Source: an uncultured Actinomycetes bacterium
Lineage (GTDB): Bacteria > Actinomycetota > Thermoleophilia > Gaiellales > JAICJC01
Assembly (NCBI GenBank): GCA_963703275.1
Contig: OY969804.1
Location: forward strand, 2,963,154 to 3,027,153
Length of the DNA: 64,000 nucleotides
Direction of reading: 5' to 3'
The notes under the pieces are model-generated. The model worked only from the letters and a program-made list of their open reading frames with translations, had not been told where the DNA came from and did not search any database. A program made the translations under genes and the position numbers. Positions 12,957-62,330 of the stretch are shown here, piece after piece; position 1 is the stretch's first letter; the number at the start of each line of letters is the position of its first letter.

Positions 12957-13063
<107 letters not shown>

Positions 13064-36754: not shown

Positions 36755-38065
36755 ATGAGCGGGACGAATCTCCACCGCGTTGTCGTCGTCGGCGGCGGCT
36801 TTGGCGGGCTCCAGGCCGCGTTAAAGCTGCGGCGGGCGCCGGTCGAGGTGACGCTTGTCGATCGGCGCAACTTTCACCTGTTCCAGCCGCTTACCTACCA
36901 GGTCGCGACCGGCGCGCTGGCGCCGGGCGAGGTCGCCTACCCGCTGCGGGCGATCTTCAAGCGGAGCCATAACGTCAGCGTGCTTCTGGCCGAGGTCTGC
37001 GATTTCGATCTCGATGCGCGGAGGGTGCATCTGCGGCCGGTCGGCGGAGTCTCGGCCCCGAACTCGATCGCCTACGACACGCTCATCGTGTCCGGCGGCT
37101 CACGCTACTCCTACTTTGGCCACGACGACTGGCGCGAGCACGCCTCGGAGGTCAAGTCGCTCGAGAGCGCCCTTCACGTGCGCACCCGTCTGCTGAGCGC
37201 CTTCGAGGCCGCCGAGCAGGAGACCGATCCCGCGCTGCGGGCAGCTCAACTCACCTTTGTGGTGGTGGGCGGGGGCCCAACCGGTGTGGAGATGGCGGGG
37301 CAGATCGCGGAGCTCGCCCGCGACACTCTGCGCCGAGACTTCCGCAGCATCGACCCGCGCGCGGGTCGCATCCTGCTCGTCGAGGCGTCGGATCGGGTGC
37401 TGACAACCTTTCCGCCGACGCTCTCCCGGAAGGCGGAGCGATCCCTGCAGCGGCTCGGTGTGACCGTACTCCTAGGACGCACGGTGGTCGGTGTCGACGC
37501 CGAGGGTGTCACCGTCGATGCCGGACACGATTCCTCCGAGCGGATCCCCGCCCGAACGGTGATCTGGGCCGCCGGAGTGACCGCCTCTGACCTCGCATCG
37601 CGGCTCGCGGCACTGGCGGGGAGCAAACCCGATCGGGCCGGGCGCGTGACCGTCGAACCGGATCTCACACTTCCGGGTCACCCCGAGGTCTTTGCGCTCG
37701 GTGACATGATCCGGGTGCGTGATGCCGGCGGTGCGCTTCTGACGCTTCCCGGGGTCGCCCCGGTCGCCATGCAGCAGGGGCGCTACGCCGCGAAGGCGAT
37801 CAGCGCCCGGCTGGGCCACCGTGAACCGCCGCCTTTTCGGTATCGCGACAAGGGCAACCTGGCGACGATCGGGCGGGCCGCCGCCGTCGCGGACATCAAG
37901 GGCCTGCGGCTGAGCGGGCTGCTCGCGTGGATGACCTGGCTGGTCGTCCACCTCTGGTACCTCGTCGGCTTCCAGAATCGGATCCTCGTCCTCACCCGCT
38001 GGTTGTTCAGCTTCGTGACCCGAGGCCGGGGCTCGCGACTGATCACCGAGTCTGAGGACGACTAA
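36755..38065 (+). CDS. ndh: type II NADH dehydrogenase (NDH-2)
   Basis: VVVVGGGFGGL, NFHLFQPLTYQVATG, second fold FVVVGGGPTGVEMAG, C-terminal membrane-anchoring helices. Confidence 0.85.
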   Translation: MSGTNLHRVVVVGGGFGGLQAALKLRRAPVEVTLVDRRNFHLFQPLTYQVATGALAPGEVAYPLRAIFKRSHNVSVLLAEVCDFDLDARRVHLRPVGGVSAPNSIAYDTLIVSGGSRYSYFGHDDWREHASEVKSLESALHVRTRLLSAFEAAEQETDPALRAAQLTFVVVGGGPTGVEMAGQIAELARDTLRRDFRSIDPRAGRILLVEASDRVLTTFPPTLSRKAERSLQRLGVTVLLGRTVVGVDAEGVTVDAGHDSSERIPARTVIWAAGVTASDLASRLAALAGSKPDRAGRVTVEPDLTLPGHPEVFALGDMIRVRDAGGALLTLPGVAPVAMQQGRYAAKAISARLGHREPPPFRYRDKGNLATIGRAAAVADIKGLRLSGLLAWMTWLVVHLWYLVGFQNRILVLTRWLFSFVTRGRGSRLITESEDD

Positions 38066-39945
38066 TGCCCGAGGAACATCCCGTGGACGCCGGAGAACCC
38101 GCTCGCGGCAATCGTCGTCTGCGTTCCGGGGACGGGCACGCTGTTGGTGAAGGCGATTGACTGCAGCGCCCCGCCGGACGTGGCGTAGTAGAGGCGGCCG
38201 GCGGCCAGGGTCACGCCGCTCGTGCTGCTCCAGTCGAGTCCGTCCCCGTTGCCGGACGCGATGAACTCCTGCGCGCCCACCAGCCCATCCTCGGGCTCGA
38301 ACCAGCGCCAGTACAGGTAGGGGCTCCCCGCCTCGGTGTAGAAGATGCGGCGCACCGAGTAGAACATGCCGGTCACGTTGGCGGCGTTGAAGTATGTGGG
38401 CGAGAGGCCGTTCAGCTGCAGCGCCACGGGCGGGCCGAGGGTGGTGCCGTTGAAGCTGCGCTCGTACACGTTGCCGTCGCTCCAGGCGGTGTACAGCTCG
38501 CCGCCCAGCAGGAAGCCGCCGCGGGCCTGCGACCAGTCGACCCCTGGCGTGGAGACGACGCTCGCCGAGCCGAGGGTCGTGCCGTTGAACGACTGGCCGG
38601 TGAGCGTCGACGAGCCGATCGCATACAGCGTTCCCGGCAGGCCCTGGGCGGTGTAGCTCGGCGGTGTCTCGCCTCCGTTCAGGGGCATGAACGCGATCCG
38701 GTCGCGGTAGACCCCGTCGATGTAGGCGGTGTTGCTGCCGACATACAGGCCCTCCGCGGTGGGCAGCAGCGCCCATGCGCCGGTGCCGCGCGGATCGCGG
38801 CCGGGGTTCCAGCCGTACGGCAGTCCGTTCGTGGGATCGAGGGCGGCAATGCCGAACCGCTGCACCGCGCCGGCCGCGGCCGCGTTGCTGCCGTACGGAT
38901 TGTTCAGCCAGCGCTGGTGCCCGCCCACGTACACCGCCGCACCGGTGACGGACACGCTGGTGAGGCTGTCGCCGCCCGTGTAGTCGATCCATGTCGGCGC
39001 CAGGTTGCTCCCGGTCGCGCTCGTCTCCCAGCGCTGCGCGCTGTCGCAGAACGTGCCGGCGAACGGCCCACCCGTGTCCGCGACGACGAAGTACTTCCCA
39101 TTCGGCGCGAAGTCGACGCCGCGAAGGTACGTGTCAAACGTGGTCGAGCAGGTGCCCTTGAAGTCGTTCGTCTCCCAGTTGGCCACCTTGATGGGCGTGG
39201 TGGTCAGGTTGAGCATCGCGATCTGGTTGCGGTCGAGGCCGTTGGCCAGGGTGAACGTGCCGGTCACGACCATCCTGGTGTGGTCGGGCGAGACCGCCAT
39301 GTGCGCGACCCGGAGGGTGCCGCGACGTTTGGCCGAGAAGCTCACCTTGACGTTGGGGTCCACCGCGCCGGTGGTGGTGTTGACCGCGCCGAAACGGCCG
39401 CGGGCAACGCCGTCGATCTTCGTCTCCGACCCGCCGATGTAGAGCTCGCCGCCGACCACCACGAGCGACTCGACCCACGTCGCCTGGACGGTCGCCGAGA
39501 ACCCGGCGGTCGGCTTGCCCGTCGCGATGTTGAGCTTGGCCAGGCGCTTGATGGGGTGGCCGGCGATGCTCGAGAACGTCCCTCCCGCGAAAACCGCGGT
39601 GCCCGAGGGAGCGGTCGCGAGGCTGTAGACCGTGTTGTTCGGGTTGGGCTGGAAATGCGTGTCCACGAGCCCGGTGCTGGGGTTGAACGCGAACAGATTC
39701 GAGACGTTGTAGGTGGTGCCGCCACGGTTCGCCACCTGCGTGAACGACCCGCCCACGACGATCTCGGTGCCGACCTTGGCGACCGCAAACACGGTTCCGT
39801 TCAGGACGTTGGGCGTGTTGGTGCCCGGGATGGGACTGACGATCTGCGTCTGCTTGAGCGCCGCGCCCGCCTCGGACACGGCTCCCGTGATCACCAGCAC
39901 CAACCCCAGCACAATGCCAAGCCCAAGCGTCCGTCTCATTCTCAT
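38062..39945 (-). CDS. secreted beta-propeller repeat protein with C-terminal repeat domain
   Basis: Signal MRMRRTLGLGIVLGLVLVITGAV. Blades IVVGGSFTQVANRGG, VFAGGTFSSIAGHPIKRLA, LYIGGSETKIDGVARGRFG. Paralogue of 201-1457. Confidence 0.65.
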   Translation of the reverse strand: MRMRRTLGLGIVLGLVLVITGAVSEAGAALKQTQIVSPIPGTNTPNVLNGTVFAVAKVGTEIVVGGSFTQVANRGGTTYNVSNLFAFNPSTGLVDTHFQPNPNNTVYSLATAPSGTAVFAGGTFSSIAGHPIKRLAKLNIATGKPTAGFSATVQATWVESLVVVGGELYIGGSETKIDGVARGRFGAVNTTTGAVDPNVKVSFSAKRRGTLRVAHMAVSPDHTRMVVTGTFTLANGLDRNQIAMLNLTTTPIKVANWETNDFKGTCSTTFDTYLRGVDFAPNGKYFVVADTGGPFAGTFCDSAQRWETSATGSNLAPTWIDYTGGDSLTSVSVTGAAVYVGGHQRWLNNPYGSNAAAAGAVQRFGIAALDPTNGLPYGWNPGRDPRGTGAWALLPTAEGLYVGSNTAYIDGVYRDRIAFMPLNGGETPPSYTAQGLPGTLYAIGSSTLTGQSFNGTTLGSASVVSTPGVDWSQARGGFLLGGELYTAWSDGNVYERSFNGTTLGPPVALQLNGLSPTYFNAANVTGMFYSVRRIFYTEAGSPYLYWRWFEPEDGLVGAQEFIASGNGDGLDWSSTSGVTLAAGRLYYATSGGALQSIAFTNSVPVPGTQTTIAASGFSGVHGMFLGH

Positions 39946-46689: not shown

Positions 46690-47445
46690 TCAGTACGTGG
46701 CACGCCCGCCGGAGATGTCGAAGGTCGCTCCAGTCGAGAACGACAGTCGTTCACTGGCGAGAAACGCCACGAGCTCTGCCACCTCGTCCACGTGACCCAT
46801 CCGACCAAGGGGGATACGCTCGAGCATATAGTCGATGTGCTCCTGGGAGATCTGCCCCAAGAGCGGTGTACGGATCACGGCCGGGGCGATGCAGTTGACG
46901 AGCACGCCGGTTCCGGCCACGTCCTTGCCGATCGCCTTGGTCATCGCGATCACCGCCGCCTTGCTGGCGGAGTAGGCGGTGGCCATGGGGTTTCCCTCCT
47001 TGCCCGCGATCGAGGCGATGTTCACGATCCGGCCGTAGCCGCGCTCGGTCATCCCGCCCAGCACCGCGCGATTCGCGTAGAAGACGCCGTCGCAGTTGAC
47101 CGCAAAGACGCGCCGCCACTCCGCGTCGGACACCTCGACGGTGTGCAGCGAATCGCCGCCGATCCCGGCCGAGCACACGAGCACGTCGATCGGCCCGAGC
47201 GCGGCTGAGGCCGCGGCCATCGCGGCGTCGACGTCGGCGGATGCGGTGACGTCTGCGCCCAGGCCCAGGGCCGCGTCGCCAATCCCGCGCGCACAGGCCT
47301 CGGCGGCCGCCGCGTCCAGGTCGATCAGCGCGACCTTCGCGCCCAGCCCCGCCAGGTGCGTGGCGCTCGCCAGGCCGATGCCACTCGCGCCGCCCGTAAC
47401 GGCGGCGACCCGGCCGGCGAAGGGTTGAGACGTCGAATCAGGCAT
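46690..47445 (-). CDS. short-chain dehydrogenase/reductase (FabG-like)
   Basis: TGGASGIG, NIASIAG, YSASKAAV catalytic motif. Confidence 0.85.
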   Translation of the reverse strand: MPDSTSQPFAGRVAAVTGGASGIGLASATHLAGLGAKVALIDLDAAAAEACARGIGDAALGLGADVTASADVDAAMAAASAALGPIDVLVCSAGIGGDSLHTVEVSDAEWRRVFAVNCDGVFYANRAVLGGMTERGYGRIVNIASIAGKEGNPMATAYSASKAAVIAMTKAIGKDVAGTGVLVNCIAPAVIRTPLLGQISQEHIDYMLERIPLGRMGHVDEVAELVAFLASERLSFSTGATFDISGGRATY

Positions 47446-47451
47446 GGGCGG

Positions 47452-48795
47452 TCATCCTTTCCGGAAGTGCTCCGCGGAACCGGAGCGAGTTTGCATTGGT
47501 GACGCCTCACGAGGAGGTGCGGAGACCGCGCCGGCGCCGGCATAGGTAGCATGATCGCCCTCGCGGGCTTCGATTTGCAGTAGCCGGTTCCACTTCGCGA
47601 GGCGTTCTGACCTGGTCAGCGAACCAACCTTGATTTGTCCGGCGCTCCAGGCGACCGCGAGGTCGGCAACCCAGGAGTCTTCGGTATCACCGGAGCGAGC
47701 CGAGACGACGACGCCGTACCCCTGCGCCTGAGCGGATCGCGCGACGTCTTCAGCTCGCGAAAGCGACCCGGCCTGGTTGGGCTTGACCAGCACCGCGTTC
47801 GCGATGCCCCGCTCGCACCCGGCTCGGAGCCGTTCGAGGTTCGTGGCAAACAGGTCATCACCGACCAGCTGGACGCCTGCCAGGACCCCAGTGGCCGCTT
47901 CCCAGCCGGCCCAGTCCCGGTCGCCCAGAGGATCTTCGATCGAAAGGATTGGAAACTCTACTCGCCACCGGTTGATCTCGTCGATCAGTCCGGCGCTGGT
48001 GAGTTGGCGATCCTCGAGGCCCAGGCGGTATCCGCCGCCCGACTCCAACTGATTGGCCGCAACATCGATGGCGATGGCGACGTCGACCCCCGGGTCGAAC
48101 CCCGCCGCCTCGATCGCGTCGGTAACCAGTTCAAGCGCTCGGCGGTTGCTTCCGAGCCTCAATCCGAGCCCCCCTTCGTCGGCAACGAGATCCGTGCGCA
48201 AACCCGAGCGGGTTGCGAGTCTGACCGCGGCGGCCCGCACTCGCGAGACGTGTTCGATCGCGTCGGAGAACCGGCGGGCCGCGAGCGGAATCACAAGCAC
48301 GTCCTGCAGGTCGAGCGCACCGGCGGCATGGGCTCCGCCCGAGAGGATGTTGACCATCGGCAGTGGCAAGAGCGGCGGCGTGCCTTTCGGCGCGATCTGA
48401 TACAGCTCGAGTCCGCGACTGCGGGCGTTCGCGAGTGCCCATGCAACCGAAAGCGCCAGAACCGCATTGGCGCCGACGTGTGACAGATTCGGGCTCCCGT
48501 CGGCCTCGACCAACGCGGCGTCGAGCTCGTGCTGATTCTCGAACCGACGACCGGCGATTGCAGGCAGAAGGATGTTGTTTAAATTCTCGACCGCGCGTTG
48601 CACTCCGAGCCCTCCGAACCTCTCGCCGCCATCGCGGAGCTCGGTCGCCTCGTACCGTCCGGTGGAAGCGCCGGACGGCACGGTGGCTGCGCCGGTCGCA
48701 CCTGACTCGAGTCGCAGCTCACAGCCGACGGTCGGCCTGCCGCGAGAATCCAGCGCTTCCCATGCGAGACCGCCAGCGACGACCGGCGCGCTCAC
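47452..48795 (-). CDS. enolase-family protein (divergent phosphopyruvate hydratase paralogue)
   Basis: SGASTG, GGAHA, ADEGG, AIDVAA, SIEDP, VGDDL, VKPNQAG and QIKVG are retained. SHRSGETED is SARSGDTED and QEFMI is QDVLVI. GTG 48795 overlaps the kinase stop. Confidence 0.8.
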   Translation of the reverse strand: MSAPVVAGGLAWEALDSRGRPTVGCELRLESGATGAATVPSGASTGRYEATELRDGGERFGGLGVQRAVENLNNILLPAIAGRRFENQHELDAALVEADGSPNLSHVGANAVLALSVAWALANARSRGLELYQIAPKGTPPLLPLPMVNILSGGAHAAGALDLQDVLVIPLAARRFSDAIEHVSRVRAAAVRLATRSGLRTDLVADEGGLGLRLGSNRRALELVTDAIEAAGFDPGVDVAIAIDVAANQLESGGGYRLGLEDRQLTSAGLIDEINRWRVEFPILSIEDPLGDRDWAGWEAATGVLAGVQLVGDDLFATNLERLRAGCERGIANAVLVKPNQAGSLSRAEDVARSAQAQGYGVVVSARSGDTEDSWVADLAVAWSAGQIKVGSLTRSERLAKWNRLLQIEAREGDHATYAGAGAVSAPPREASPMQTRSGSAEHFRKG

Positions 48796-49793
48796 GGGGC
48801 TCCTGCCATCCTTGCACGTTCGCACAGTTGCCCGACGGACCCGCATGGGTCGAGCAGCAACCGCCGTCCCAGCTCGCGAGCGACGTCCCGCTCGACGGGC
48901 GTGAGGTACTCGGCCGGAGATTTCCCGTCCACGCGGGCGAGCATCAGGCATCCGACTTCCGCGGAGATCTCGTCGACGGGCTCGAGAAGCCGCGCGTCGA
49001 CCGCCTCCCGGTAGGCCATGAGGAACTGCTCGACGCAGCAATGGTATTGGGCCACGAGACCAGGATTGTGGATGGCCTTCAGCAGCAGATGGTTGACCAT
49101 GAACGCGGTGTCGAACAACGGACTCCCGATGTGTGCGACCTCCAGATCGATAATCCAGCGTCCCGTCGGCCCCACCAGGACGTTCTTGGGCGCAAAGTCA
49201 CCGTGGACGAGGCACCGCCGATCCTGGTTGAGCCGGTCGATGCGCGTCTCGATCGCGGCGGCCACCTCTGGCCGACGGGCCGCCGTGGTTCGGTAGTACG
49301 GGTCGATTCGGAGCTGGGTGAAGACGTCTCGATCCGCGAACGCACGTCGCACCGCTTCGTCATCGAGAGAGCACGAGTGGAGGCGCCCCAGAGCCTTGCC
49401 GAGAAAGCGGGCGGTGGCGGACTCCACGACTCCGTCCATCAGATCCTGCTTCCAACTCCTCCAGTCGCGCGGGGCACACTCGATGGTAATGACGTTTGCT
49501 TCGCGATCCACGTCGAGCACCAACGGCACCGTGCCGGGCAGGATCCGGGCCATGATCCGAAGCGCGGCCGCCTCGTTCACCACCCGTCCGACGGGCGCCA
49601 TCCACTCGTCGGCAACCTGTAGCCGGGGGCGCGCCTGCTTGGCCACCAGCCGGCGCCCGCTGGCGGATTCGACCCTCAGGACCACACACGAGACTCCTCC
49701 GCCGAGCTCCTCGACCGTGGCCGCATCGGAGGCGTGGAGCTGCCCCCTCGCGACGAGGTATCGAACCACGGATTGTGGGGCGAGCAGCATCAC
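48792..49793 (-). CDS. MtnK-like / aminoglycoside-phosphotransferase-fold kinase
   Basis: VEELGGGVSCVVLRV, LVAKQARPRLQVADEWMAPVGRVVNEAAAL and Brenner-type LVHGDFAPKNVLV...IIDLE. Overall pattern recalls 5-methylthioribose kinase. Confidence 0.65.
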   Translation of the reverse strand: MMLLAPQSVVRYLVARGQLHASDAATVEELGGGVSCVVLRVESASGRRLVAKQARPRLQVADEWMAPVGRVVNEAAALRIMARILPGTVPLVLDVDREANVITIECAPRDWRSWKQDLMDGVVESATARFLGKALGRLHSCSLDDEAVRRAFADRDVFTQLRIDPYYRTTAARRPEVAAAIETRIDRLNQDRRCLVHGDFAPKNVLVGPTGRWIIDLEVAHIGSPLFDTAFMVNHLLLKAIHNPGLVAQYHCCVEQFLMAYREAVDARLLEPVDEISAEVGCLMLARVDGKSPAEYLTPVERDVARELGRRLLLDPCGSVGQLCERARMAGAP

Positions 49794-49848
49794 GGGCCGC
49801 CTCGCGGGTGACGGGTTCGACCGGCGAAAGGGGCCATCACAGCGGTGC

Positions 49849-49877
49849 TTGACAACCCGATGCCGAGAGCCTAGAGT
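49849..49877 (+). promoter_or_regulatory. sigma-70-like promoter TTGACA-17 nt-TAGAGT
   Basis: Perfect -35 at 49849-49854, 17-nt spacer, -10 TAGAGT at 49872-49877. Lies about 65 nt upstream of the MR/MLE gene. Confidence 0.45.
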
Positions 49878-49944
49878 CGCCTATAAGTTTCAATGAGAGT
49901 GGAGTCTACACCCTGTCGTTCCTCGTCCCGAGGTGGTGTGGCCG

Positions 49945-51120
49945 GTGCGTGTCGAGCACGTTGATCTGACGTTTTTGAACCTCCCGCTCGTGCGTCCAGA
50001 GGTGTGGACATGGGGCAGCCGGTCGTCCTACACAGTTGGGTTGGTCGAGGTGCAGACCGACGTCGGGGTCGTCGGTTTGGGAGAGGTCAACGTCTGTATG
50101 GGCCCCAACCCGGCGGTGATCGCAGCCATGTGCGACCAGTTGTCGGAAAGCCTGATCGGTGAGTCAGCGCTGGCACCCCAGAGGTTCCTCAGTCGTGTGC
50201 TCGGGCTCGGCTGGTATCCGTTCCATCGCACCTGCGCGCTCGTGCTGGGCGGAATCGAGATGGCGCTCTGGGACGCGATGGGCAAGCACCTCGGGCAGCC
50301 GATCTCAACGCTCTTCGGTGGTTCGCTACGCGAGAGCTTCAACTCGATGTACTACGTGCAGTCGCAGGAGAACCTCGCCGACATGGTCGGCCAGGCTTGC
50401 GAGGCGGTTGGGCGCGGGTTCGACACCATCTACTTCAAGGTGGGCATCGGCGAGCAGCGCGACGTCGAGCTGGTGGCATTGATGCGCGAGGGCCTGGGAG
50501 CTGGGCCAAAGATCCGGGTCGACTCGAACGAGGCCTGGAGTCCGGGTACGGCGGTGCGGATCCTCCGCCAGATGGCGCCCTACACGATCGAATACATCGA
50601 GCAGCCCGTGTCGATGTTCGACATCGACGGTATGGCGCACGTGCGAGCCGCGAGCGGCGTTGCGGTCGCCGCCAACCAGACCTCATGGGGGCCGCAGTCA
50701 ATCATGGAAGTGATCCGTCGCAACGCGGCCGACGTGATCATGACCGACCCCCATCAGGAAGGCGGCCTGATCCCGTTCAAAAAGGCGCTAACGGTATGTG
50801 AGATGGCCGGAGTGCCGTTCGTCGTCCACGCCTTCAATGCGACGACCATGTCGTTGCTCGCAGACGTGCAGGTGATGAGCACCTCGACCGCACCGATCCT
50901 GGCCCAGCAGGGCCATCCCGACTTCCTGGCCGACGACTACGTCACTGAACCGCTCGACTACGCCGGCGGCCAGATCCCCGTGCCGCAGCGGCCGGGGATC
51001 GGCGTTGAAATCGACCGCGACAAGCTTGCCCGATACCACGCCCAGTTCCTGGAGGAAGGAATGGCGTCGATCTACCCGCTCTCAACCGAGGCACCGGCGA
51101 TCTATGTCCCTGCGTACTAG
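49945..51120 (+). CDS. enolase-superfamily enzyme, mandelate racemase/muconate lactonizing (MR/MLE) type, copy 1
   Basis: GIEMALWD, YFKVGIG, RVDSNEAW, YIEQPV. GTG 49945 (VRVEHVDL) preferred, preceded by GAGGTGG. The ORF itself opens at 49933. Confidence 0.8.
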   Translation: MRVEHVDLTFLNLPLVRPEVWTWGSRSSYTVGLVEVQTDVGVVGLGEVNVCMGPNPAVIAAMCDQLSESLIGESALAPQRFLSRVLGLGWYPFHRTCALVLGGIEMALWDAMGKHLGQPISTLFGGSLRESFNSMYYVQSQENLADMVGQACEAVGRGFDTIYFKVGIGEQRDVELVALMREGLGAGPKIRVDSNEAWSPGTAVRILRQMAPYTIEYIEQPVSMFDIDGMAHVRAASGVAVAANQTSWGPQSIMEVIRRNAADVIMTDPHQEGGLIPFKKALTVCEMAGVPFVVHAFNATTMSLLADVQVMSTSTAPILAQQGHPDFLADDYVTEPLDYAGGQIPVPQRPGIGVEIDRDKLARYHAQFLEEGMASIYPLSTEAPAIYVPAY

Positions 51121-51139
51121 CGCCCTGCCGGTCGCGCGT

Positions 51140-51745
51140 CTAGAACGATGGGGGGCACACGATGAAGAGCGCGATCGCAGGCGTGCTGCTGACGACCTCA
51201 CAGCGGTGTGGCAGACGGGCGTCGAACGTGATCAGATCCCCGGCCTCCAAGTCGTACACCTCATCGCCCACCTGAAGGCGGACGCTGCCGGCGAGGATGT
51301 AGTTGGCCTCCTCCCCGGCATGGGCGCGTGCCTCGCGAGTGTTCGACCCGCCGGGCGGGAGCGCCCAGCGGCCGACCTCGAACGCACCATCGAACGAGGG
51401 CGACAGCAACTGGAACTCGAGGAACTCGGGAAGCCCGAGATCAATGGCCTCTCCGGAGCGCACAACGCGTGCGGCGGCCCGGCCGGCAAGCAGCTGGAAC
51501 GGAGCCGTCCCGAGCACCTCGGCGATGTTTCGGAGGGAGTCCAACGAGGGCGCAGCAAGGCCGCGTTCGACCTGGCTGAGCAGGCTGACCGAAATCGCCG
51601 CCTGGCCCGCGACGTCAGAGAGCGTACGACCCTGCTGGTGGCGGAGTTTCCTGATCGCCGAACCAAGGTTTCGACGCTCCGCGGCGCGGGCCCAATCGCG
51701 GCCATCGCCCTGCGGGACGCTTCTTCCCTCGGCGATGTCTGCCAT
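51140..51745 (-). CDS. XRE-family HTH plus cupin-domain transcriptional regulator (PuuR-like architecture)
   Basis: HTH LGSAIRKLRHQQGRTLSDVAGQAAISVSLLSQVERG. C-terminal cupin HAGEEANYILAGSVRLQVG. Confidence 0.8.
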   Translation of the reverse strand: MADIAEGRSVPQGDGRDWARAAERRNLGSAIRKLRHQQGRTLSDVAGQAAISVSLLSQVERGLAAPSLDSLRNIAEVLGTAPFQLLAGRAAARVVRSGEAIDLGLPEFLEFQLLSPSFDGAFEVGRWALPPGGSNTREARAHAGEEANYILAGSVRLQVGDEVYDLEAGDLITFDARLPHRCEVVSSTPAIALFIVCPPSF

Positions 51746-51801
51746 GACCCCATCTTAGACGAGCAACCCTCGCCTACAAGCCACCACGAGGAGGATTCGC
51801 G

Positions 51802-53451
51802 ATGAGTTCTGAAGCTGAAACCGGCGGTCCCGGCGTTTCAACGCCCCTCCCGGTGTTCACCCGGAAAGCAACCGGGCTTGTGCGCGAGGTTACCGCCCTC
51901 GACATGGTGCTCTACAACGCCGCGTCGACCTCCCCGATCGGCCTCGTACTCGTGTTCGGCCTGTTCGCTCTGGTGCTGTTCCCGCGGTCCAACTTCTATC
52001 TCGCAATGCTGATCGCCGTCGCCCTCGGAACGGCGGTGTGGACGACGTTCGCTCTGATCAGTGCCGCGATTCCGCGGATCGGTGGTGACTACACATTCAA
52101 CTCCCGGATATTGCATCCGTGGGTCGGCATGGCGGGCTCGCTCTGCGTCCTGATCTCATCGGCTCTGTGGACGGGAATCTTCTGTTATTTCTTTGTCGCC
52201 CAGGGGCTCTCGCCGATCTTCACGGTCATCGGTGCCACTTCCCACTCGCAACGGATCACCAACTGGGGTACGTACTTCTCGGCCGAGCACCAAACCGTCT
52301 GCTTCATCGGCGGCGTGATTGCGTTGGCCCTAATGGCACTTCTCTCCTCACTCGGCACGCACGTCGTCATCCGGACGATGTCAATACTGCTCCTGGTCGC
52401 CGTCGCCGGCTTTGCGATCGACATCCTCATCCTGCTCTTCACAAGCCACACCAGCTTCATCCACACCGTCAACTCGGTCGCCGGTCACAACGCGTACCAG
52501 AAGACCGTTGCGGCCGGAAAGAGCCAGGGCATCTACCCATCTCAAGGCGGATACTCGTCCTCGAACACCCTGGGCGCGATCTACTACGCCTTCACGGTCA
52601 CCATCTTCTGCTTCTGGGGTACGTACATGGCCTCGGAGTTCAAGGGCGCCGGTCGGCGCAAGCGCCAGCTGTCTGTGATGTTGGGAGCGGGTATCGGTCA
52701 AGGCTTGCTGGCACTGATCGCGATTGTCGTGTTCCTGCACACGGTCGGCTACGACTTTTTCGCATCCGCACTCAACGGGAACTACACGGGCACGGGTGGG
52801 GGAACCATCGGCCAGGTCGGCTACGGGTACTTCTCGGCGCTGGTTTCGGGAAACACCTTCTTCGTCACGATCCTCGGTCTGACGTTTCTCGGCTGGTGGC
52901 TGCCGTCGAGCTATTGCAACTCCTCGGTCGTCCAGCGGTACTTCGTCTCGTGGGCGCTCGATGGCCTGCTCCCGTCCAGGCTCGCCAACGTGGATGAGCG
53001 CCGGCACACGCCGATCGTCGCGATCGTCGTCACCTTTGTCCTGTCGGTCGTCGGTGTCGCCTGGACCGCATACAGCAGCACCTTCTTCCAGGTTTTCGCC
53101 TTCGGCACGATGTTCGCGTTCTTCCCGATCGTGCTGGTTGGGATCTCGGGGGCCGTGATGAAGTGGCGCCGGCCCGACCTGTACAAGGGGTCACCCGCCG
53201 AGTGGCGACTGTTCGGCATCGAGGTGTTGCCGATCGCCGGAACGATCTGTTTCCTGGTCGGCTGCTTCGCGATTGGGCTCGTGCTCCACTTCCACACCCA
53301 GCTCGGAATCACCAAGTACTTCACCTATGTCTGGGCGGGGCCCCTGATTGTCTTCATCGTCGCGGCGGTCTGGTGGTTCGTCGCCAAGGCGGTTCAATCG
53401 AGCCGCGGTGTTGACCTGACGCTCGCCTACAAGGTGATTCCGCCAGAGTGA
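51802..53451 (+). CDS. APC superfamily amino acid/polyamine-type permease
   Basis: 549 aa with 12-14 TMS. The N-terminal region (FTRKATGLVREVTALDMVLYN, then IPRIGGDYTF) is typical of APC permeases. Confidence 0.75.
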   Translation: MSSEAETGGPGVSTPLPVFTRKATGLVREVTALDMVLYNAASTSPIGLVLVFGLFALVLFPRSNFYLAMLIAVALGTAVWTTFALISAAIPRIGGDYTFNSRILHPWVGMAGSLCVLISSALWTGIFCYFFVAQGLSPIFTVIGATSHSQRITNWGTYFSAEHQTVCFIGGVIALALMALLSSLGTHVVIRTMSILLLVAVAGFAIDILILLFTSHTSFIHTVNSVAGHNAYQKTVAAGKSQGIYPSQGGYSSSNTLGAIYYAFTVTIFCFWGTYMASEFKGAGRRKRQLSVMLGAGIGQGLLALIAIVVFLHTVGYDFFASALNGNYTGTGGGTIGQVGYGYFSALVSGNTFFVTILGLTFLGWWLPSSYCNSSVVQRYFVSWALDGLLPSRLANVDERRHTPIVAIVVTFVLSVVGVAWTAYSSTFFQVFAFGTMFAFFPIVLVGISGAVMKWRRPDLYKGSPAEWRLFGIEVLPIAGTICFLVGCFAIGLVLHFHTQLGITKYFTYVWAGPLIVFIVAAVWWFVAKAVQSSRGVDLTLAYKVIPPE

Positions 53452-54425
53452 GCGGACTGTTTCGACGTCGCGCTCGCCCGGAGGGCGTCAGGATCTTCTT
53501 CGCCACGGATGTGCACGGCTCGGACCGATGCTTCAAGAAGTTCATCGGTGCCGCCAAGTTCTACAACGCGAGGTATTTGATATTGGGAGGCGATATCACG
53601 GGGAAGACATTGGTGCCGGTCGAGCGCACGACGCGGGGATGGACTGCGCGGTTCGGCGATCACACCTACATCGATATGACCGACAGCGAACGGCGTGATC
53701 TCGAACAATCCATCCGTGACAACGGCCAGTACCCGATCGAGGGCGAACGCGATGTGTTGATGCAACTCCATGACGAGACACACCGCGAGATCGCGTTTCG
53801 CGCCGCCGTGGTCGACGGCATCCGGCGCTGGGTCGCCATTGCCGAGGAGCGGCTTGCCGGCACCGATGTGCGGTGCTTCATCACTCCCGGCAACGACGAC
53901 TACTGGGAAATCGATGAACCGCTCCAGGCCTCGAGCACGGTCGAGTTCGTGGAGGGCCGGTGCGTGCGACTGAACGATGATCACGAGATGATCACCACCG
54001 GCTACTCGAACATCACCCCGTGGCAGTCTCCCCGTGAGATCTCCGAGCCGGAGTTTTCCAAGCTACTCGAGGGGATGTTCACCGAGGTGGCCGACCCGGA
54101 GAACCTCATCTGCGTCTTTCACCCGCCCCCCTACGACACCGACCTCGATCAGGCACCGGCGATCGACTCGGAGTTCCGGATGCAGATGTCCGGTGGGGCG
54201 CCCAAGATGATTCCGGTCGGCTCGACCGCCGTCCGCGCGTTCATCGAGGAGCACCAGCCGTTGCTGGCCCTTCATGGGCACGTGCACGAGTCCAAGGCCG
54301 CCCAGCGGATCGGGCGCACGCTCTGCCTCAACCCCGGTTCGGAGTATCCCGAGGGTGTGCTGAGTGGAGCGCTCGTGACGGTGGGGGCGCGGGAGGTCAC
54401 CGCCCACCAGTTCACGCTCGGCTAA
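53448..54425 (+). CDS. metallophosphoesterase (calcineurin-like)
   Basis: Motifs ATDVHGS, GGDITGK, TPGNDD, LHGHVHES. GTGA overlap with the permease stop. Confidence 0.7.
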   Translation: MSGLFRRRARPEGVRIFFATDVHGSDRCFKKFIGAAKFYNARYLILGGDITGKTLVPVERTTRGWTARFGDHTYIDMTDSERRDLEQSIRDNGQYPIEGERDVLMQLHDETHREIAFRAAVVDGIRRWVAIAEERLAGTDVRCFITPGNDDYWEIDEPLQASSTVEFVEGRCVRLNDDHEMITTGYSNITPWQSPREISEPEFSKLLEGMFTEVADPENLICVFHPPPYDTDLDQAPAIDSEFRMQMSGGAPKMIPVGSTAVRAFIEEHQPLLALHGHVHESKAAQRIGRTLCLNPGSEYPEGVLSGALVTVGAREVTAHQFTLG

Positions 54426-54440
54426 GGAGGCGAGGATCAG

Positions 54441-55550
54441 ATGATCACACGGGACGAGTATCCCCACCGAGTCGAGCGGCTTCGGGTTGGAATCGAGCGC
54501 CTCGGCGTGGATGAGGCCGTCCTGGACGGCGCCGACCATGTCACCCACCTGTGCGGTTACTCCCGCTACCTGGCCGGGCCGAGCGTTGTCGTGCTCACAC
54601 GGGACGGACGGAGGGTGTTGATCGTTCCACGCTACGAGTTCGAGGCAGCCGCGCACGGCGCCCAGGCGGACGATGTGATCGCCTACGGGGACGAGGAGTT
54701 TCTCGACTTCGATCCGGCGCCCTTGATCGCCCGGGCCTGCCGGTCGGTGCTCGCGTCCCCGGTTGTCGGCGTGTGCGGAATCGCTCCCGGGCTGGCTGCG
54801 GCGCTCGGCGATGTGGGTGTCGAGGGGACCGACGTTGCCGGCCCTGTGACCGAGGTGCGGCTCGTCAAAGACGGCGACGAGCTCGTCGCGATGGCGGAGT
54901 CTCGGGTGCACGCGCTCAGAGGGCAGGACGCGATTGACGCACGCGCCAAGCCCGGCGAGCGTGATCTCGACCTCTTCACGGCCGCCTGGTCGGCCGCCCA
55001 GACGAGTGCCGGCGTCCCGGTCGAATTTGTCGGAAGCGTCGCGAGCGGCGCCCACACCGCCGAGGTGGCGCCGCCGGTATACGTGCCCGGCGCCAAACAG
55101 GTAGAGCCCGGCGATCCGCTCCTCTCCGATGTTGCGGTGCGCGTCAACGGGTACTGGAGCGACACGACCCGGACAACGATCGTGGGGGAGAACGACGAGG
55201 CGACCGCAGTCCGCGACGAGATCGCCGCGATCCTGGAACGCTCCGTCGGCCAGATGCGTACGGGAATCCCGGTGAGCGAGTTCTACGGCCACCTTCGTGA
55301 CCAGATCAGCGACCGCTTCCCCGACGGGTGGTTTCCTCACCACGGGGGGCACAGTCTCGGGCTCTCGGTCGGGGAGAACCCTCAGATCATCCCCACGGAG
55401 CATTCGGTGATGCGGCACGGCATGGTGTTCGCGGTTGAGCCAGGGGTGTATTTCCCCGCCCGGTTCGGCGTCCGCGTCGAGGACATGTACCGAGTCACCG
55501 ACGGAGGCGGCGTCCGCATCGACATCGCTGCCGCAGGGGCGTCGGCATGA
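54441..55550 (+). CDS. M24 family metallohydrolase (Xaa-Pro peptidase / creatinase-like)
   Basis: Metal-ligand contexts LSDVAVRVNGYWSDTTRT, HHGGHSLG, VFAVEPGVY, VRVEDMY. Confidence 0.8.
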   Translation: MITRDEYPHRVERLRVGIERLGVDEAVLDGADHVTHLCGYSRYLAGPSVVVLTRDGRRVLIVPRYEFEAAAHGAQADDVIAYGDEEFLDFDPAPLIARACRSVLASPVVGVCGIAPGLAAALGDVGVEGTDVAGPVTEVRLVKDGDELVAMAESRVHALRGQDAIDARAKPGERDLDLFTAAWSAAQTSAGVPVEFVGSVASGAHTAEVAPPVYVPGAKQVEPGDPLLSDVAVRVNGYWSDTTRTTIVGENDEATAVRDEIAAILERSVGQMRTGIPVSEFYGHLRDQISDRFPDGWFPHHGGHSLGLSVGENPQIIPTEHSVMRHGMVFAVEPGVYFPARFGVRVEDMYRVTDGGGVRIDIAAAGASA

Positions 55551-56725
55551 GGGTCGAGCGACTCGAGACGATCGTGGTGAGTGTCCCCTATCGCCATCGA
55601 GAGGTGAGCGCGCAGGTCGAACGGGATGGTGTAACCGACGTGCTGGTGAAGCTCACAACCACGGATGGGATCACGGGTTGGGGAGAAGCCCCGAGCGGGG
55701 CGGATGTCACCAGCGTTGAGAACGCCATCCAAGCGATGGCGCCATTTGTGATCGACCGCAGCCCCTGGGACGGCGAGGCGATTCGAGGGGAGCTGTACCA
55801 GCACGGGCTATGGCAGTTCCGGCCGATGACCGGGAACTTCGCCTGGGCCGGGATCGACATGGCGCTGTGGGACATCTGCGGCAAGGCGGCCCAGCTTCCG
55901 ATCCACCGCTTCTTTGGCAGTCTCCGCCGCGAGAACGTCGACTATTTCTACTACCTCGCCCGCGGCGACCGTGAGGATCTGACGGCGCAGTGCAAGCAGG
56001 GCTTGGCGGCCGGCTACTCGGTGTACTACCTCAAGGTCGGCATCGATCTGAACGCCGAGCTGGCGATGGTCGACGCGATCCGAAGCGCGCTCGGGCCGGG
56101 GCCCCGGATCCGCCTTGATGCCAATGCGGCCTGGAGCGCTTCGGAGGCACTCCGCAACCTCGAGCAGTTCGCCGTGTACGACATCGACTTTGTCGAGCAG
56201 CCGGTGCGCGAATCGCCGATCCGCCAGATGGCGGAGCTGCGCGGCCGGTCCCCGATCCGCATCTGCGCCAATGAGGGCCTGTGGACTGAGGATGACGCCT
56301 ACGCGAGGATCACGCAGCGCGCCGCCGACCTGATCTGCTTCAGCCCGTACTGGGTGGGCTCGCTGCGAGCGTTTTCGCGGATCTCCCACCTCGCCCAGCT
56401 GGAAGGTCTGGGGGTGTGCAAACACACCCACGGCGAACTCGGAATCGCCGCCGCAGCCTGCCATCAGGTGCTGCTCACGCTGCCCAGCATCGAGAAAGGG
56501 AACCAGCAGACCGCGCAGTTGATGATGAGCGATGTTCTGGCGCACCCTCTGCCGATCGCCACCGGGCCCTCCTGGGGCGTACCGGACGAACCGGGACTGA
56601 GCATCGTCATCGACGACGACGCTGTGGCGGATGCAGCCGAGCGCTACCGGCTTGATGGCCCGTTCCTTCCCTACCAGCTTCCTCACTCCCGGCGCGCATC
56701 GCCTGCGCCAAGCCGTGTGAGCTAG
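55547..56725 (+). CDS. enolase-superfamily enzyme, MR/MLE type, copy 2
   Basis: GIDMALWD, YYLKVGID, RLDANAAW, FVEQPV. ATGA overlap with the M24 gene. Paralogous to copy 1. Confidence 0.8.
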   Translation: MRVERLETIVVSVPYRHREVSAQVERDGVTDVLVKLTTTDGITGWGEAPSGADVTSVENAIQAMAPFVIDRSPWDGEAIRGELYQHGLWQFRPMTGNFAWAGIDMALWDICGKAAQLPIHRFFGSLRRENVDYFYYLARGDREDLTAQCKQGLAAGYSVYYLKVGIDLNAELAMVDAIRSALGPGPRIRLDANAAWSASEALRNLEQFAVYDIDFVEQPVRESPIRQMAELRGRSPIRICANEGLWTEDDAYARITQRAADLICFSPYWVGSLRAFSRISHLAQLEGLGVCKHTHGELGIAAAACHQVLLTLPSIEKGNQQTAQLMMSDVLAHPLPIATGPSWGVPDEPGLSIVIDDDAVADAAERYRLDGPFLPYQLPHSRRASPAPSRVS

Positions 56726-57036
56726 GGTTGCTCTTGGCCGATGTCCTCGTACAGTCCGGCGTCACAATCGACGACGCTCAGCCACAGGTCGATGTTCGCA
56801 GCGGCCTCGGGGTCCCGTCGCCGCTGCTCGTTCCACTCGTCGAGCCGCGCGGCCGAATCGATCTCCCAGATATTGATGTACTGGGGACCGCCGAGCCGCC
56901 AGGTGCGCCCGATGGAAAGGGTCGGACGATCCTGCGGATTCGCATTCGCCCAGTACGCATCGGTGCGCCTGATGGTTTCATGAAACACCTGCGGGTCAAC
57001 GTTCGGTTTCCGTGAATAGAACTCTATGTAGTACAT
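56722..57036 (-). CDS. hypothetical small protein
   Basis: 104 aa from ATG 57036 (MYYIEFYSRKPNVD...). The ORF extends to 57075, but that ATG sits inside a TATAAT box. Confidence 0.45.
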   Translation of the reverse strand: MYYIEFYSRKPNVDPQVFHETIRRTDAYWANANPQDRPTLSIGRTWRLGGPQYINIWEIDSAARLDEWNEQRRRDPEAAANIDLWLSVVDCDAGLYEDIGQEQP

Positions 57037-57073
57037 ACGCGATGTCCCTTTCATCTCCGTCGAACGTTTGTAC

Positions 57074-57083
57074 ATTATAGAAT
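57074..57083. promoter_or_regulatory. overlapping divergent -10 elements in an AT-rich patch
   Basis: Minus strand reads TATAAT (57079-57074). Plus strand reads TAGAAT (57078-57083). The surrounding 23 nt (57066-57088) have only 5 G/C. Confidence 0.35.
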
Positions 57084-57130
57084 AAAAGCGGCGGGCTCTT
57101 CAACCCGCCAAGAGGTGGTGGCAGCCTGAA

Positions 57131-57514
57131 GTGTCTGAGTACAATGACTACACCATAAGGATCGAGCAGGGACGACCGTTCGATGCACTGGGTGCACCCG
57201 TGCGGCGGTTGGTACATCCGAACACCGTGGGCTCACACCTGCTGGGCGTGTCGATCTGCCTGATGGAGCCGGGCGACCGAATCCGCGCGCACTCGCATGA
57301 CTATGAAGAGGCGTACTTCGTGCTGCGCGGGCGAGGGGTGATGACGCTTGAGGGCGTCGGAGAGATCCGGCTCGAGCCCGAGCTCACGGTGTACGTCCCA
57401 CCGGGCCGGGTGCACGGTCAGGTGAACGATGGCGACGAACCGCTCCACATCGTGCTCGCGCTCGCGCCGCCGCCGGTGGAAGGCGATCCCCCACGCTTCG
57501 CGGACGAGTCGTGA
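57131..57514 (+). CDS. cupin domain protein
   Basis: Cupin motifs HSHDYEEAYFVLRG and VYVPPGRVHG. GTGA overlap with the transketolase N subunit. Confidence 0.7.
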   Translation: MSEYNDYTIRIEQGRPFDALGAPVRRLVHPNTVGSHLLGVSICLMEPGDRIRAHSHDYEEAYFVLRGRGVMTLEGVGEIRLEPELTVYVPPGRVHGQVNDGDEPLHIVLALAPPPVEGDPPRFADES

Positions 57515-58341
57515 CCGACCCTGACCGGATCCGGGAGAAGGCGCGGTTTGCGCGCGAAGAGACCATTCGGCTGATCCAGGTCGCGAAGGTGGGGCATTTC
57601 GCCTCGTCATTCTCATGTGCGGAGATCCTGGCCACGCTCTACTACGGCGTGATGCGCCTGCGCCGAGGTGAGCCGGACTGGCCCGGCCGCGACCGGTTCC
57701 TGTTCGGCAAAGGCCACGCGGCGGTCGCGCTCTATCCAATACTGGCTGACTGGGACTTCATCGAAGATGACGTCTTGGACAGATACACCCGGCTGGGGAA
57801 CCCGCTGGGCGATCACCCCGACATGACCCGGGTGCCGGGTATCGACTTCAGCTCTGGCTCGCTTGGGCATGCGCTCTCGGCCGGCCTGGGTATGGCGCTT
57901 GGCAGCCGCTTCCACCGCCGGCCGTTCAACGTTTTCGTGCTGATGGGCGACGGCGAGCAGCACGAGGGGCAGGTGTGGGAGGCCGCGATGTCCGCAGCTC
58001 ATCATGGTGTGAGCAACCTGATCGCGATCATCGACCGAAACCAGTACTCACTCGACGGAAAGGTCGACGACGTGATCGGGATCGAGCCGCTGGCCGCCAA
58101 GTGGCGTGCCTTCGGCTGGAACGTGTCCGAGGTTGACGGCCATGACGTTGACCAGCTCTTGCCGACCCTGGCGGGTCTGGCCGCCGGCGCCGCCTCAGGC
58201 CGAGCCCCGTCGCTCGTGATCGCTCACACCGTCAAAGGGAAGGGCGTTCCGTTCATGGAGTCGGAGCTGGGATGGCACCTCGGTTACCTGACGCCCGCCG
58301 ACGCGAAGTACGCGCTCGAGCAGATCCGGGGGCAGCCGTGA
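57511..58341 (+). CDS. transketolase, N-terminal (TPP-binding) subunit
   Basis: GHFASSFSCAEILATLYY, SGSLGHALSAGLGMA, VLMGDGEQHEGQVWEA, IIDRNQYSLDG. Confidence 0.85.
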   Translation: MTDPDRIREKARFAREETIRLIQVAKVGHFASSFSCAEILATLYYGVMRLRRGEPDWPGRDRFLFGKGHAAVALYPILADWDFIEDDVLDRYTRLGNPLGDHPDMTRVPGIDFSSGSLGHALSAGLGMALGSRFHRRPFNVFVLMGDGEQHEGQVWEAAMSAAHHGVSNLIAIIDRNQYSLDGKVDDVIGIEPLAAKWRAFGWNVSEVDGHDVDQLLPTLAGLAAGAASGRAPSLVIAHTVKGKGVPFMESELGWHLGYLTPADAKYALEQIRGQP

Positions 58342-59312
58342 GTGTGCATCAACTCGACGAGGGATCGTGGCATCTTCTGATGCTGCTCGACCAAGCCCCG
58401 GGGTTCGTCGTTCTTGCCGACGTGCTGGGCGATCTCGCGGATGAGGGCCACCCGATTGTGGTGTGCACCGCCGATTTGGGGCACTCAAATGGCCTCGTTC
58501 GCTTTCACGAGCGGCATCCGGACCGGTTCTTCCAGTTTGGGATCTCCGAGCAGAACATGGTGACCGCGTCGGCTGGGTTGGCCACCACTGGGCTGCGACC
58601 GTATGTGGCCACGTTCGCATCGTTCCTGGCCCTGCTCTGTTGCGAGCAGATCCGCACCGACGTCGCGTACACAAGACAACCTGTGAGGCTGATCGGCCAC
58701 CACTCGGGGATTACGCTGGGGTTCTACGGCACGTCTCACCATGCGACCGAGGATCTCGCAATCACCCGGTCGATCGCCGGACTCTCGGTCGTCGCCCCGG
58801 CCGACTCGACCTCGATGGCCGCAGCATTCAGAGCCACCGTCGACCACGACGGCCCGATCTACTTCCGGATCGGACGGGGTCGAGATCCACAGGTATACGA
58901 GACGGTCGACTTCACCCTGGGCAAGGCCATCCCCCATGGAGTGGGAGCAGACCTGACGATCATCGCCACCGGTTCCATGGTGCACGACTCGCTCGCCGCC
59001 GCAGCGACACTGCGGGAGGACGGTCACTCGGTCGGAGTGCTCGACATGCACACCATCAAACCGCTCGATGTGGAAGCGATCGCCGCCGTTCGATCACCGC
59101 TCATCCTGACCGTGGAGGAGCACAACATCCTCGGCGGGTTGGGCGGCGCGGTGGCAGAGGTACTCGCCGAGGGCGGTACCGGCGTGCGACTCGTCCGCCA
59201 CGGAATCCGCGACGAGTACAGCCTGATCGGACCACCCACACACCTCTACGCGCACTACGGACTCGACGCCGAGGGCATCGCCAACGCCGCGCGCTCCGCT
59301 CTGACAGCTTGA
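58338..59312 (+). CDS. transketolase, C-terminal (pyrimidine-binding) subunit
   Basis: FFQFGISEQNMVTASAGLA and HATEDLAITRSIAGL. The GTG 58338 start overlaps the upstream TGA. Confidence 0.85.
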   Translation: MSVHQLDEGSWHLLMLLDQAPGFVVLADVLGDLADEGHPIVVCTADLGHSNGLVRFHERHPDRFFQFGISEQNMVTASAGLATTGLRPYVATFASFLALLCCEQIRTDVAYTRQPVRLIGHHSGITLGFYGTSHHATEDLAITRSIAGLSVVAPADSTSMAAAFRATVDHDGPIYFRIGRGRDPQVYETVDFTLGKAIPHGVGADLTIIATGSMVHDSLAAAATLREDGHSVGVLDMHTIKPLDVEAIAAVRSPLILTVEEHNILGGLGGAVAEVLAEGGTGVRLVRHGIRDEYSLIGPPTHLYAHYGLDAEGIANAARSALTA

Positions 59313-62246: not shown

Positions 62247-62330
62247 GGGGCGATCCTACTCGACCCTGCATCGCCGAGACGTCCGGCGAACCGCGATACT
62301 GCGCGGCGGGAGGCAACTGCGGAGGGGGAC

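Follow-up and report, generated by a model that had tools for sequence, protein, structure and literature searches.

A kinase-paired clade of non-canonical enolases in Actinomycetota that may act on a substrate other than glycolytic 2-phosphoglycerate

Enolases (EC 4.2.1.11), such as Rv1023 of Mycobacterium tuberculosis (PDB 7CLL), convert 2-phosphoglycerate (2-PG) to phosphoenolpyruvate (PEP), and the enolase subgroup of the superfamily is generally treated as single-function. Annotation pipelines label every member of this subgroup, including the clade described here, "phosphopyruvate hydratase, glycolytic process". PhpH from phosphinothricin tripeptide biosynthesis is reportedly an enolase homologue that converts a 2-substituted glycerate analogue to carboxyphosphonoenolpyruvate, a PEP analogue, and is said to sit in a phosphonate biosynthetic cluster with a nucleotidyltransferase and a mutase homologue. 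A D-glycerate 2-kinase (MOFRL/GckA) together with enolase takes a hydroxy acid to a 2-phospho acid and on to an enol phosphate in serine-cycle, glyoxylate, and tartrate routes. Here we analyzed a stretch of 64,000 nucleotides from an uncultured Actinomycetes bacterium (contig OY969804.1, positions 2,963,154 to 3,027,153; hereafter, the window), in which an enolase-family gene directly follows a gene for an APH-fold kinase that resembles 5-methylthioribose kinase (MtnK). The evidence from sequence comparison points to the window enolase belonging to a side-branch that is large, conserved, and misannotated and whose active-site signature is fixed. The window is included in a 100-kb soil-metagenome contig (ENA ERZ25039468), and the same cluster is present at 93-100% identity in a metagenome-assembled genome (MAG) labelled "uncultured Actinomycetes bacterium".

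By its domains, its predicted fold, and most of its catalytic residues, the window protein belongs to the enolase family. It carries the N-terminal capping domain (Enolase_N, PF03952, 138 bits) and the C-terminal barrel (Enolase_C, PF00113, 267 bits), it scores above the cut-off of the curated NCBIfam enolase model, and its AlphaFold2 (AF2) model (pLDDT 88.2) superposes on the M. tuberculosis enzyme with TM-scores of 0.91-0.95 and on solved enolases with scores of at least 0.9. It has the same two-domain fold as the M. tuberculosis enzyme at 46% identity, the alignment gives 45-47% identity to solved bacterial enolases, and the sequence is no closer to the actinobacterial housekeeping enolase than to cyanobacterial or gamma-proteobacterial ones. 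All the enolase motifs listed in the original prediction, which had been made from the nucleotide sequence and its translations, were found in the translation: SGASTG (residues 41-46), GGAHA (153-157), QDVLVI (164-169), DEGG (206-209), AIDVAA (242-247), SIEDP (285-289), VGDDL (311-315), VKPNQ (337-341), SARSGDTED (365-373), and QIKVG (387-391).

The catalytic apparatus shared with canonical enolases comprises the metal ligands, the Lys base, the Glu acid, the phosphate-binding Arg/Ser and Lys, and the loop His and Ser; the yeast numbering was checked against the alignment. The metal ligands, D246, E295, D320, and S39 in yeast, are kept as D244, E287, D313, and S44 in the window enolase, and the catalytic base K345 and acid E211 as K338 and E207. 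Likewise, R374, S375, and K396, which bind phosphate and carboxylate, and the loop residue H159 are kept as R367, S368, K389, and H156, and Q164 is retained as well. We compared the query with its 120 best matches in a collection of 5.8 billion proteins, which are 55-73% identical to it. D244, E287, S44, and E207 are the same in all 121 sequences, and D313 and K338 in 120, the sole exception being a frameshifted variant (P0003). The position that varies between Ser and Ala within the clade corresponds to yeast S36, and the metal-binding S39 (S44 here) is invariant.

Against this conserved background, the changed residues of the window enolase include the following (window/yeast: S152/N155, D165/E168, L167/M170, A205/G209, Q249/E251, A366/H373, and V390/T397). 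The alignment to solved enolases bears out the two substitutions that the original prediction had singled out, namely, the His to Ala change in SARSGDTED (yeast H373 to A) and the reading of QEFMI as QDVLVI (yeast E168 to D). Glu168 and His373, which are replaced by Asp165 and Ala366 here, flank the C3 hydroxyl of 2-PG. At the hallmark positions, canonical enolases carry E168 in 97%, H373 in 100%, and N155 in 100% of cases, and representatives with the E/H pair have Thr, Ala, or Ser at the equivalent of 390, whereas the window enolase has D165, A366, S152, and V390.

These changes are not peculiar to the window. Among the 121 sequences, Asp occupies position 165 in every one, Ala occupies position 366 in 118 (with Gly in two), and Val occupies position 390 in 118; when representatives at 50% identity are considered, Asp165, Ala366, and Val/Ile390 co-occur in about 40 clusters. 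A systematic comparison of 135 sequences with the D/A signature against 38 with E/H revealed 14 positions that are fixed differently, including N155 to S in the catalytic loop, M170 to L, G209 to A beside the acid Glu, E251 to Q, and T397 to V, in a clade whose members otherwise share only about 58% identity. The clade thus differs from canonical enolases by Asp for Glu168, Ala for His373, Ser for Asn155, Val for Thr397, and about 10 further fixed positions. In a crude neighbour-joining distance tree, rooted on yeast and built with the signature columns excluded, 131 of the 136 D/A sequences fell into one pure clade; five distant representatives lay outside it, and strict monophyly of the D/A signature is not claimed. 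The concern that the His to Ala change might be common among glycolytic enolases of this lineage is answered by the M. tuberculosis housekeeping enolase (Rv1023), which reads IQEFMVAP, SHRSGETED, QIKTG, and NGGAHA. Since this enzyme keeps the canonical Glu and His, the substitution is not a habit of actinobacterial glycolytic enolases. When the M. tuberculosis enolase was used as the search query, the top 120 matches were all from Mycobacterium.

We then examined the distribution of the pair by scanning one genome per species, covering 185,579 species (GTDB), with clade-specific peptide patterns, which gave at least 321 loci. The hosts are mostly Actinomycetota (Acidimicrobiia, Thermoleophilia, Frankia, Nocardia, Kribbella, Blastococcus, Micromonospora, Streptomyces, and others), with a few genomes from Chloroflexota and Dormibacteraeota. 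Pairing and neighbour counts were obtained by tblastn from 80 retrieved loci of the 321, one per species. The kinase gene lies directly upstream on the same strand in 74 of the 79 assessable loci, a recurrence far beyond chance, and its stop codon overlaps the enolase start in a 4-nt NTGA in 53 of the 80. Reciprocally, when two kinases at about 50% identity were examined, both had an enolase gene behind them with the 4-nt overlap (scored by gene, not by the D/A signature). The order is reversed in Rhodococcus opacus PD630, where the enolase precedes the kinase and carries QD, SARSGETED, and IKVG, and the genes still overlap. Fusions of the APH kinase to the enolase, of 770 and 745 amino acids and with a D/A or D/G signature, were found on several contigs. 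Because of the conserved adjacency, the 4-nt overlap, and the fusion proteins, functional coupling of the enolase to the kinase is strongly supported, and the kinase is an almost obligatory partner of the clade.

The clade is patchy within genera in the species-level scan, and in R. opacus and R. pseudokoreensis copies are carried by linear plasmids. Patchiness, plasmid location, and distance from the housekeeping sequence are consistent with an accessory gene, and the kinase-paired or fused clade differs in this from the enolase of the housekeeping context. The original prediction that the window gene is probably not the glycolytic enzyme therefore stands insofar as it is not an ordinary housekeeping enolase, given that the clade hallmarks are absent from the M. 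tuberculosis enzyme and the gene is patchy and plasmid-borne; the interpretation as a whole is partly supported. RefSeq and IMG name the enolase clade "phosphopyruvate hydratase / glycolytic process", and databases name the kinase "phosphotransferase" or "methylthioribose kinase".

The kinase itself matches PF01636 (APH; E = 3e-18) and has the ATP-binding Lys (K52), the HGD...N catalytic loop (H197-G-D199 and N204), and the metal-binding Asp (D216) of the APH fold, all of which are invariant in the kinase alignment. It does not fall into the glycerate kinase families (MOFRL/GckA or GlxK), as only APH-fold families were matched. Its nearest solved relative by sequence is MtnK (PDB 2olc, E = 1e-5), and the best PDB folds for its AF2 model (pLDDT 92.3) are MtnK structures (cf. 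PDB 2OLC, 2PUN, and 2PYW), with TM-scores of 0.75-0.84 at 17-19% identity. The N-lobe motif is shared, with GGGVSN.../VVKQ... of the kinase clade resembling GDGNLN.../IIKQ... of MtnK, and both have the HGD...N catalytic loop. The window kinase is, however, about 60 residues shorter than MtnK, its clade has its own strongly conserved motifs (e.g., ARVDGKSPAEYL), and a methionine-salvage context is lacking. The score of 56 bits to TIGR01767 (MTRK) is far below the cut-off of 275, and only the N-terminal third of the model is covered. The resemblance to 5-methylthioribose kinase asserted in the original prediction is thus real for the nearest family by sequence and predicted fold, but it goes no further than the fold; "MtnK-like" is right for the fold and wrong as a function.

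It follows that a true 5-methylthioribose kinase beside the "enolase" step of methionine salvage is an extremely improbable account of the pair. Older annotations as "methylthioribose kinase" and the position of MtnK as the nearest solved fold speak for it, but the weak score and identity to MtnK and the lack of any MtnA/B/C/D/W-like gene in the annotated loci led us to reject it. The methionine-salvage "enolase" belongs to unrelated families (RuBisCO-like or HAD). In one 524-aa protein (P0200), the same kinase clade is fused to 3-hydroxyacyl-CoA-dehydrogenase-type domains (PF02737/PF00725), and a 3-hydroxybutyryl-CoA dehydrogenase gene lies 3' of the cassette in two Rhodococcus loci (L089 and L092).

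To describe the surroundings of the pair, we counted neighbours within 3.5 kb in the 80 loci; our own open reading frame (ORF) calling and neighbour clustering, which recovered only about 57-61 of about 90 enolase/kinase genes, was used just to name the frequent neighbour families. D-2-hydroxyacid dehydrogenases (2HADH), which are glyoxylate/hydroxypyruvate reductase- or PGDH-like, occur in 27 loci and FAH-family enzymes, which are 2,4-diketo-3-deoxy-acid hydrolase- or HpaG-like, in 28. Both are present in 20 loci in the order FAH-2HADH-kinase-enolase-FAH, often amid LysR regulators, flavin monooxygenases, extradiol dioxygenases, and Amidohydro_2 decarboxylases. SDR (17 loci), MR/MLE (8 loci), and SMP-30-type lactonase genes (6 loci) are less frequent. 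The recurrent neighbours make or release 2-hydroxy acids, chiefly 2HADH and FAH-family enzymes and, less often, SDR, lactonase, and MR/MLE enzymes. In the remaining 30 loci none of these families is found, and the pair stands beside transporters and LacI or GntR regulators. The original prediction of a kinase-enolase-reductase unit is accordingly upheld only in part, since an SDR adjoins the pair here but occurs in only 17 of the 80 loci, where 2HADH and FAH genes are commoner; the SDR is a local partner outside the conserved unit.

The same context bears on the idea of an antibiotic-resistance pair, in which the kinase would inactivate an enolase-targeting product (e.g., an SF2312-like phosphonate) and the paralogue would be an insensitive copy of the target. 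The fold search places antibiotic kinases for corramycin, amicoumacin, and macrolides among the APH-fold relatives, the host actinomycetes are soil organisms, and the altered residues presumably line the inhibitor/substrate pocket of enolase-SF2312 complexes. Nevertheless, the pair is part of catabolic operons, in which its stop and start codons often overlap and the other genes encode 2HADH, FAH, lactonase, MR/MLE, sugar transporters, and LysR/GntR/LacI regulators, the closest kinase folds are those of MtnK rather than of drug kinases, and no biosynthetic cluster is nearby, so that we consider resistance very unlikely.

Instead, we propose, at about even confidence, that the cassette converts a 2-hydroxy acid to an enol phosphate with a substrate other than glycolytic 2-PG. 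In the first step, the MtnK-like kinase would transfer phosphate from ATP to the 2-hydroxyl of a D-glycerate-like 2,3-dihydroxy acid, which may be supplied by a nearby dehydrogenase or hydrolase (the SDR here; 2HADH or FAH-family enzymes elsewhere). In the second, as the retained residues suggest, the enolase would bind the 2-phospho acid through two Mg2+ ions (D244, E287, D313, and S44) along with R367, S368, and K389; K338 would take the C2 proton, and E207 would expel the C3 hydroxyl to give the enol phosphate. Removal of the alpha-proton and expulsion of the beta-hydroxyl are expected of a 2-phospho acid because base, acid, metals, and phosphate site are all retained, and if the enolase acts on such an acid, then its partner kinase must make it. 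The product would be PEP or a PEP homologue dischargeable by pyruvate kinase, in which case the net dehydration would be ATP-neutral; since no third gene is conserved, the product would have to be acceptable to central metabolism. The originally predicted enol phosphate other than PEP thus stands only as an inference.

The nature of the substrate is suggested by where the changes fall. Those fixed changes that can be placed presumably lie, from what is known of enolase structures, on the side of the pocket facing C3 and its hydroxyl, and in each case the canonical residue gives way to a smaller or more hydrophobic one (E to D, H to A, N to S, and T to V), so the C3 pocket is probably larger and less polar than in canonical enolases. 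Given that all members share a remodelled pocket on the side of C3 and the leaving group, 2-PG of the glycolytic pool is most likely not the physiological substrate, which would more probably be a related acid such as a C3-substituted glycerate or another isomer or analogue of glycerate. The proposed route shares its logic with the D-glycerate 2-kinase and enolase routes, and hydroxypyruvate-reductase-like dehydrogenases adjoin cassettes of the window type; here, however, the kinase fold is unrelated (APH), and the enolase is dedicated and remodelled. PhpH offers a precedent for an enolase homologue with a PEP analogue as its product, although none of its phosphonate-cluster partner genes occurs here.

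Several observations weigh against a new substrate. The window enolase scores 424.9 bits against TIGR01060 (cut-off 300), and in yeast enolase His373 is not known to be strictly essential, which makes normal activity on 2-PG possible. Hydroxypyruvate-reductase-like neighbours and the fusion of a related enolase to a glycerate-2-kinase-family protein (described below) fit plain D-glycerate just as well, and the Ala, Val, and Ser replacements indicate no single particular substituent. MtnK, the nearest relative of the kinase, phosphorylates an anomeric sugar hydroxyl. Further, a literature search on enolase paralogues, enolase-kinase pairing, SCO7638/eno2, and R. opacus LPD13119-13123 found no paper on the clade or the pairing.

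These points are close to those in favour of a dedicated true enolase, whereby the APH-fold kinase would be a new D-glycerate 2-kinase, the paralogue would convert 2-PG to PEP, and the substitutions would only tune kinetics or regulation. All the residues for 2-PG dehydration are kept along with the score above the TIGR01060 cut-off, the neighbouring 2HADHs are glyoxylate/hydroxypyruvate-reductase-like, and MOFRL glycerate-2-kinase domains are fused to related enolases; moreover, because the cassette stands alone in 30 of the 80 loci, its product would have to belong to central metabolism, as PEP does. Such an enzyme would, however, be redundant with the abundant housekeeping enzyme, and 14 fixed positions, several of them on the C3 side, in a clade of about 58% identity are indicative of selection for a different specificity. 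That the position of Glu168 matters is evident from the M. tuberculosis enolase, in which Ala at the equivalent residue (E163A) gives an inactive enzyme (PMC10619443). On balance, we consider a dedicated true enolase somewhat unlikely and continue with a substrate other than glycolytic 2-PG.

The clade is not the only remodelled enolase. Three proteins of 908-912 amino acids from independent sources (P0338, P0513, and P0516) have DUF4147 and MOFRL domains of the glycerate-2-kinase family fused to another non-canonical enolase type, which has Q167 to E, E168 to D, H373 to L, and T397 to L, has lost N155, and in the fused forms also has E211 to I; P0342 is an unfused member of this type. A third type (P0279, P0315, and P0275) has E168 to D, H373 to Q or R, T397 to F, and E211 to Thr or Ser, and because its general acid is replaced, its sequence predicts that it cannot do ordinary dehydration. 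Since two independent kinase folds have been recruited to remodelled enolases, these observations suggest that such enzymes act on phospho acids not available from central metabolism.

The sister types raise the question of a different chemistry on a 2-phospho acid in the window clade as well, such as racemisation or epimerisation, action on L-2-phosphoglycerate, or expulsion of a leaving group other than hydroxide (ether, amine, or sulfonate). The changes lie on the leaving-group side, and types without the general acid (E211 to I, T, or S) imply that non-dehydration chemistry has arisen on the enolase scaffold. On the other hand, E207 and D165 are invariant in the clade, which fits hydroxide elimination and would repel anionic leaving groups, and the adjacent 2HADHs are of a D-specific family, which makes a different chemistry distinctly unlikely. 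Sulfolactate, 2,3-bisphosphoglycerate, and other substrates with anionic leaving groups were considered unlikely on the same ground, the retention of acidic D165 and E207. The full proposal is that the reaction of the clade is other than 2-PG dehydration, with the private kinase forming an ATP-neutral phosphorylate-then-eliminate route from a 2,3-dihydroxy acid or another glycerate analogue to a PEP homologue, and that several other kinase-fused lineages do related chemistry, a proposal that we hold tentatively and at a little short of even confidence.

In the window, the cassette consists of three minus-strand genes arranged head to tail, i.e., the kinase, the enolase-family gene, and the SDR gene (Table 1). 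The overlap of the enolase GTG start with the kinase TGA, as originally described, was confirmed by reading the sequence directly; this GTGA is a classic arrangement for translational coupling. The kinase has an alternative ATG one codon after its GTG, giving a 332-aa product, which is the form reported by gene callers. The SDR start had been placed 7 nt downstream of the enolase; the actual gap between the enolase stop and the SDR ATG is 6 nt, and the SDR is probably in the same operon at this locus. The NCBIfam profile search gave no equivalog for the SDR at its cut-off. A mechanically called, TTG-initiated ORF (47452-49041) was rejected as the gene, as the alignments of homologues begin at residue 4-11 of the protein read from the GTG. 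Disorder is predicted for the last 21 residues of the window enolase. In the 93%-identical MAG copy (locus L009, 9284-9599) and in the 392-aa variant P0003, similarity breaks near the enolase C-terminus and SDR start with flanking genes 98-100% identical, which is probably due to an indel or frameshift in those assemblies.

Table 1. Positions of the cassette and surrounding features in the window
Feature	Position	Strand	Details
SDR-family oxidoreductase	46690-47445	-	251 aa; ATG at 47445; PF00106/PF13561
Non-canonical enolase-family gene	47452-48795	-	447 aa; GTG 48795-48793, stop 47454-47452
GTGA overlap	48792-48795	-	kinase TGA (48794-48792) and enolase GTG; sequence read directly
MtnK-like APH-fold kinase	48792-49793	-	333 aa from GTG; PF01636, TIGR01767, AF2 model, codons read
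AGGAG, Shine-Dalgarno-like	48800-48804	-	4 nt 5' of the enolase GTG, within the kinase coding region; sequence read
Divergent intergenic region	49794-49932	.	139 bp, between kinase and MR/MLE genes
MR/MLE (enolase-superfamily) enzyme	49933-51120	+	divergently transcribed; PF13378/PF02746; local context, unit membership uncertain
Split transketolase, N part	57511-58341		within the divergent gene set
Split transketolase, C part	58272-59312		within the divergent gene set
576-aa protein	61734-63464	+	C-terminal 360 residues BhcC/D-serine-dehydratase-like, 213 bits against a cut-off of 690

A promoter and terminator scan of the locus gave nothing useful on the minus strand, and an Rfam scan near the operon found no riboswitch or other element. 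In the divergent intergenic region, a sigma-70-like site (TTGACA-17-TAGAGT, 49849-49877; a consensus match only) is oriented towards the MR/MLE gene. This gene opens a divergent set (49933-59312) that encodes an MR/MLE enzyme, an HTH-cupin regulator, an APC permease, a metallophosphoesterase, an M24 creatinase/prolidase-like hydrolase, a second MR/MLE enzyme, a small cupin, and the split transketolase. A transketolase C-terminal gene is also found near the pair in one other locus (L094). The 576-aa protein, whose BhcC-like part relates to 3-hydroxy-D-aspartate aldolase, is extended at its N-terminus by about 210 residues that match no family. Elsewhere in the window, two adjacent and slightly overlapping minus-strand ORFs of the MMPL transporter family (28754-31077; 460 and 330 aa) may represent a single gene interrupted by a frameshift, or else an assembly error. 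Three ORFs with coding-like GC content at third codon positions have no Pfam match (201-1457, plus strand, 418 aa; 15862-17721, plus strand, 619 aa; and 38062-39945, minus strand, 627 aa), and a tRNA gene (12957-13029, plus strand) is the only Rfam match in the window at the gathering threshold.

If the clade does carry out a reaction other than 2-PG dehydration, the enolase subgroup proper would gain its first distinct function, and annotations and metabolic models in which the clade gene is counted as glycolysis would need correction. Besides this clade there are at least two other non-canonical enolase lineages, and in one of these the enolase is joined to a kinase of a different fold. Should the substrate prove new, the cassette would represent a new catabolic step in soil Actinomycetota, amid clusters for the degradation of aromatic compounds and sugar acids.

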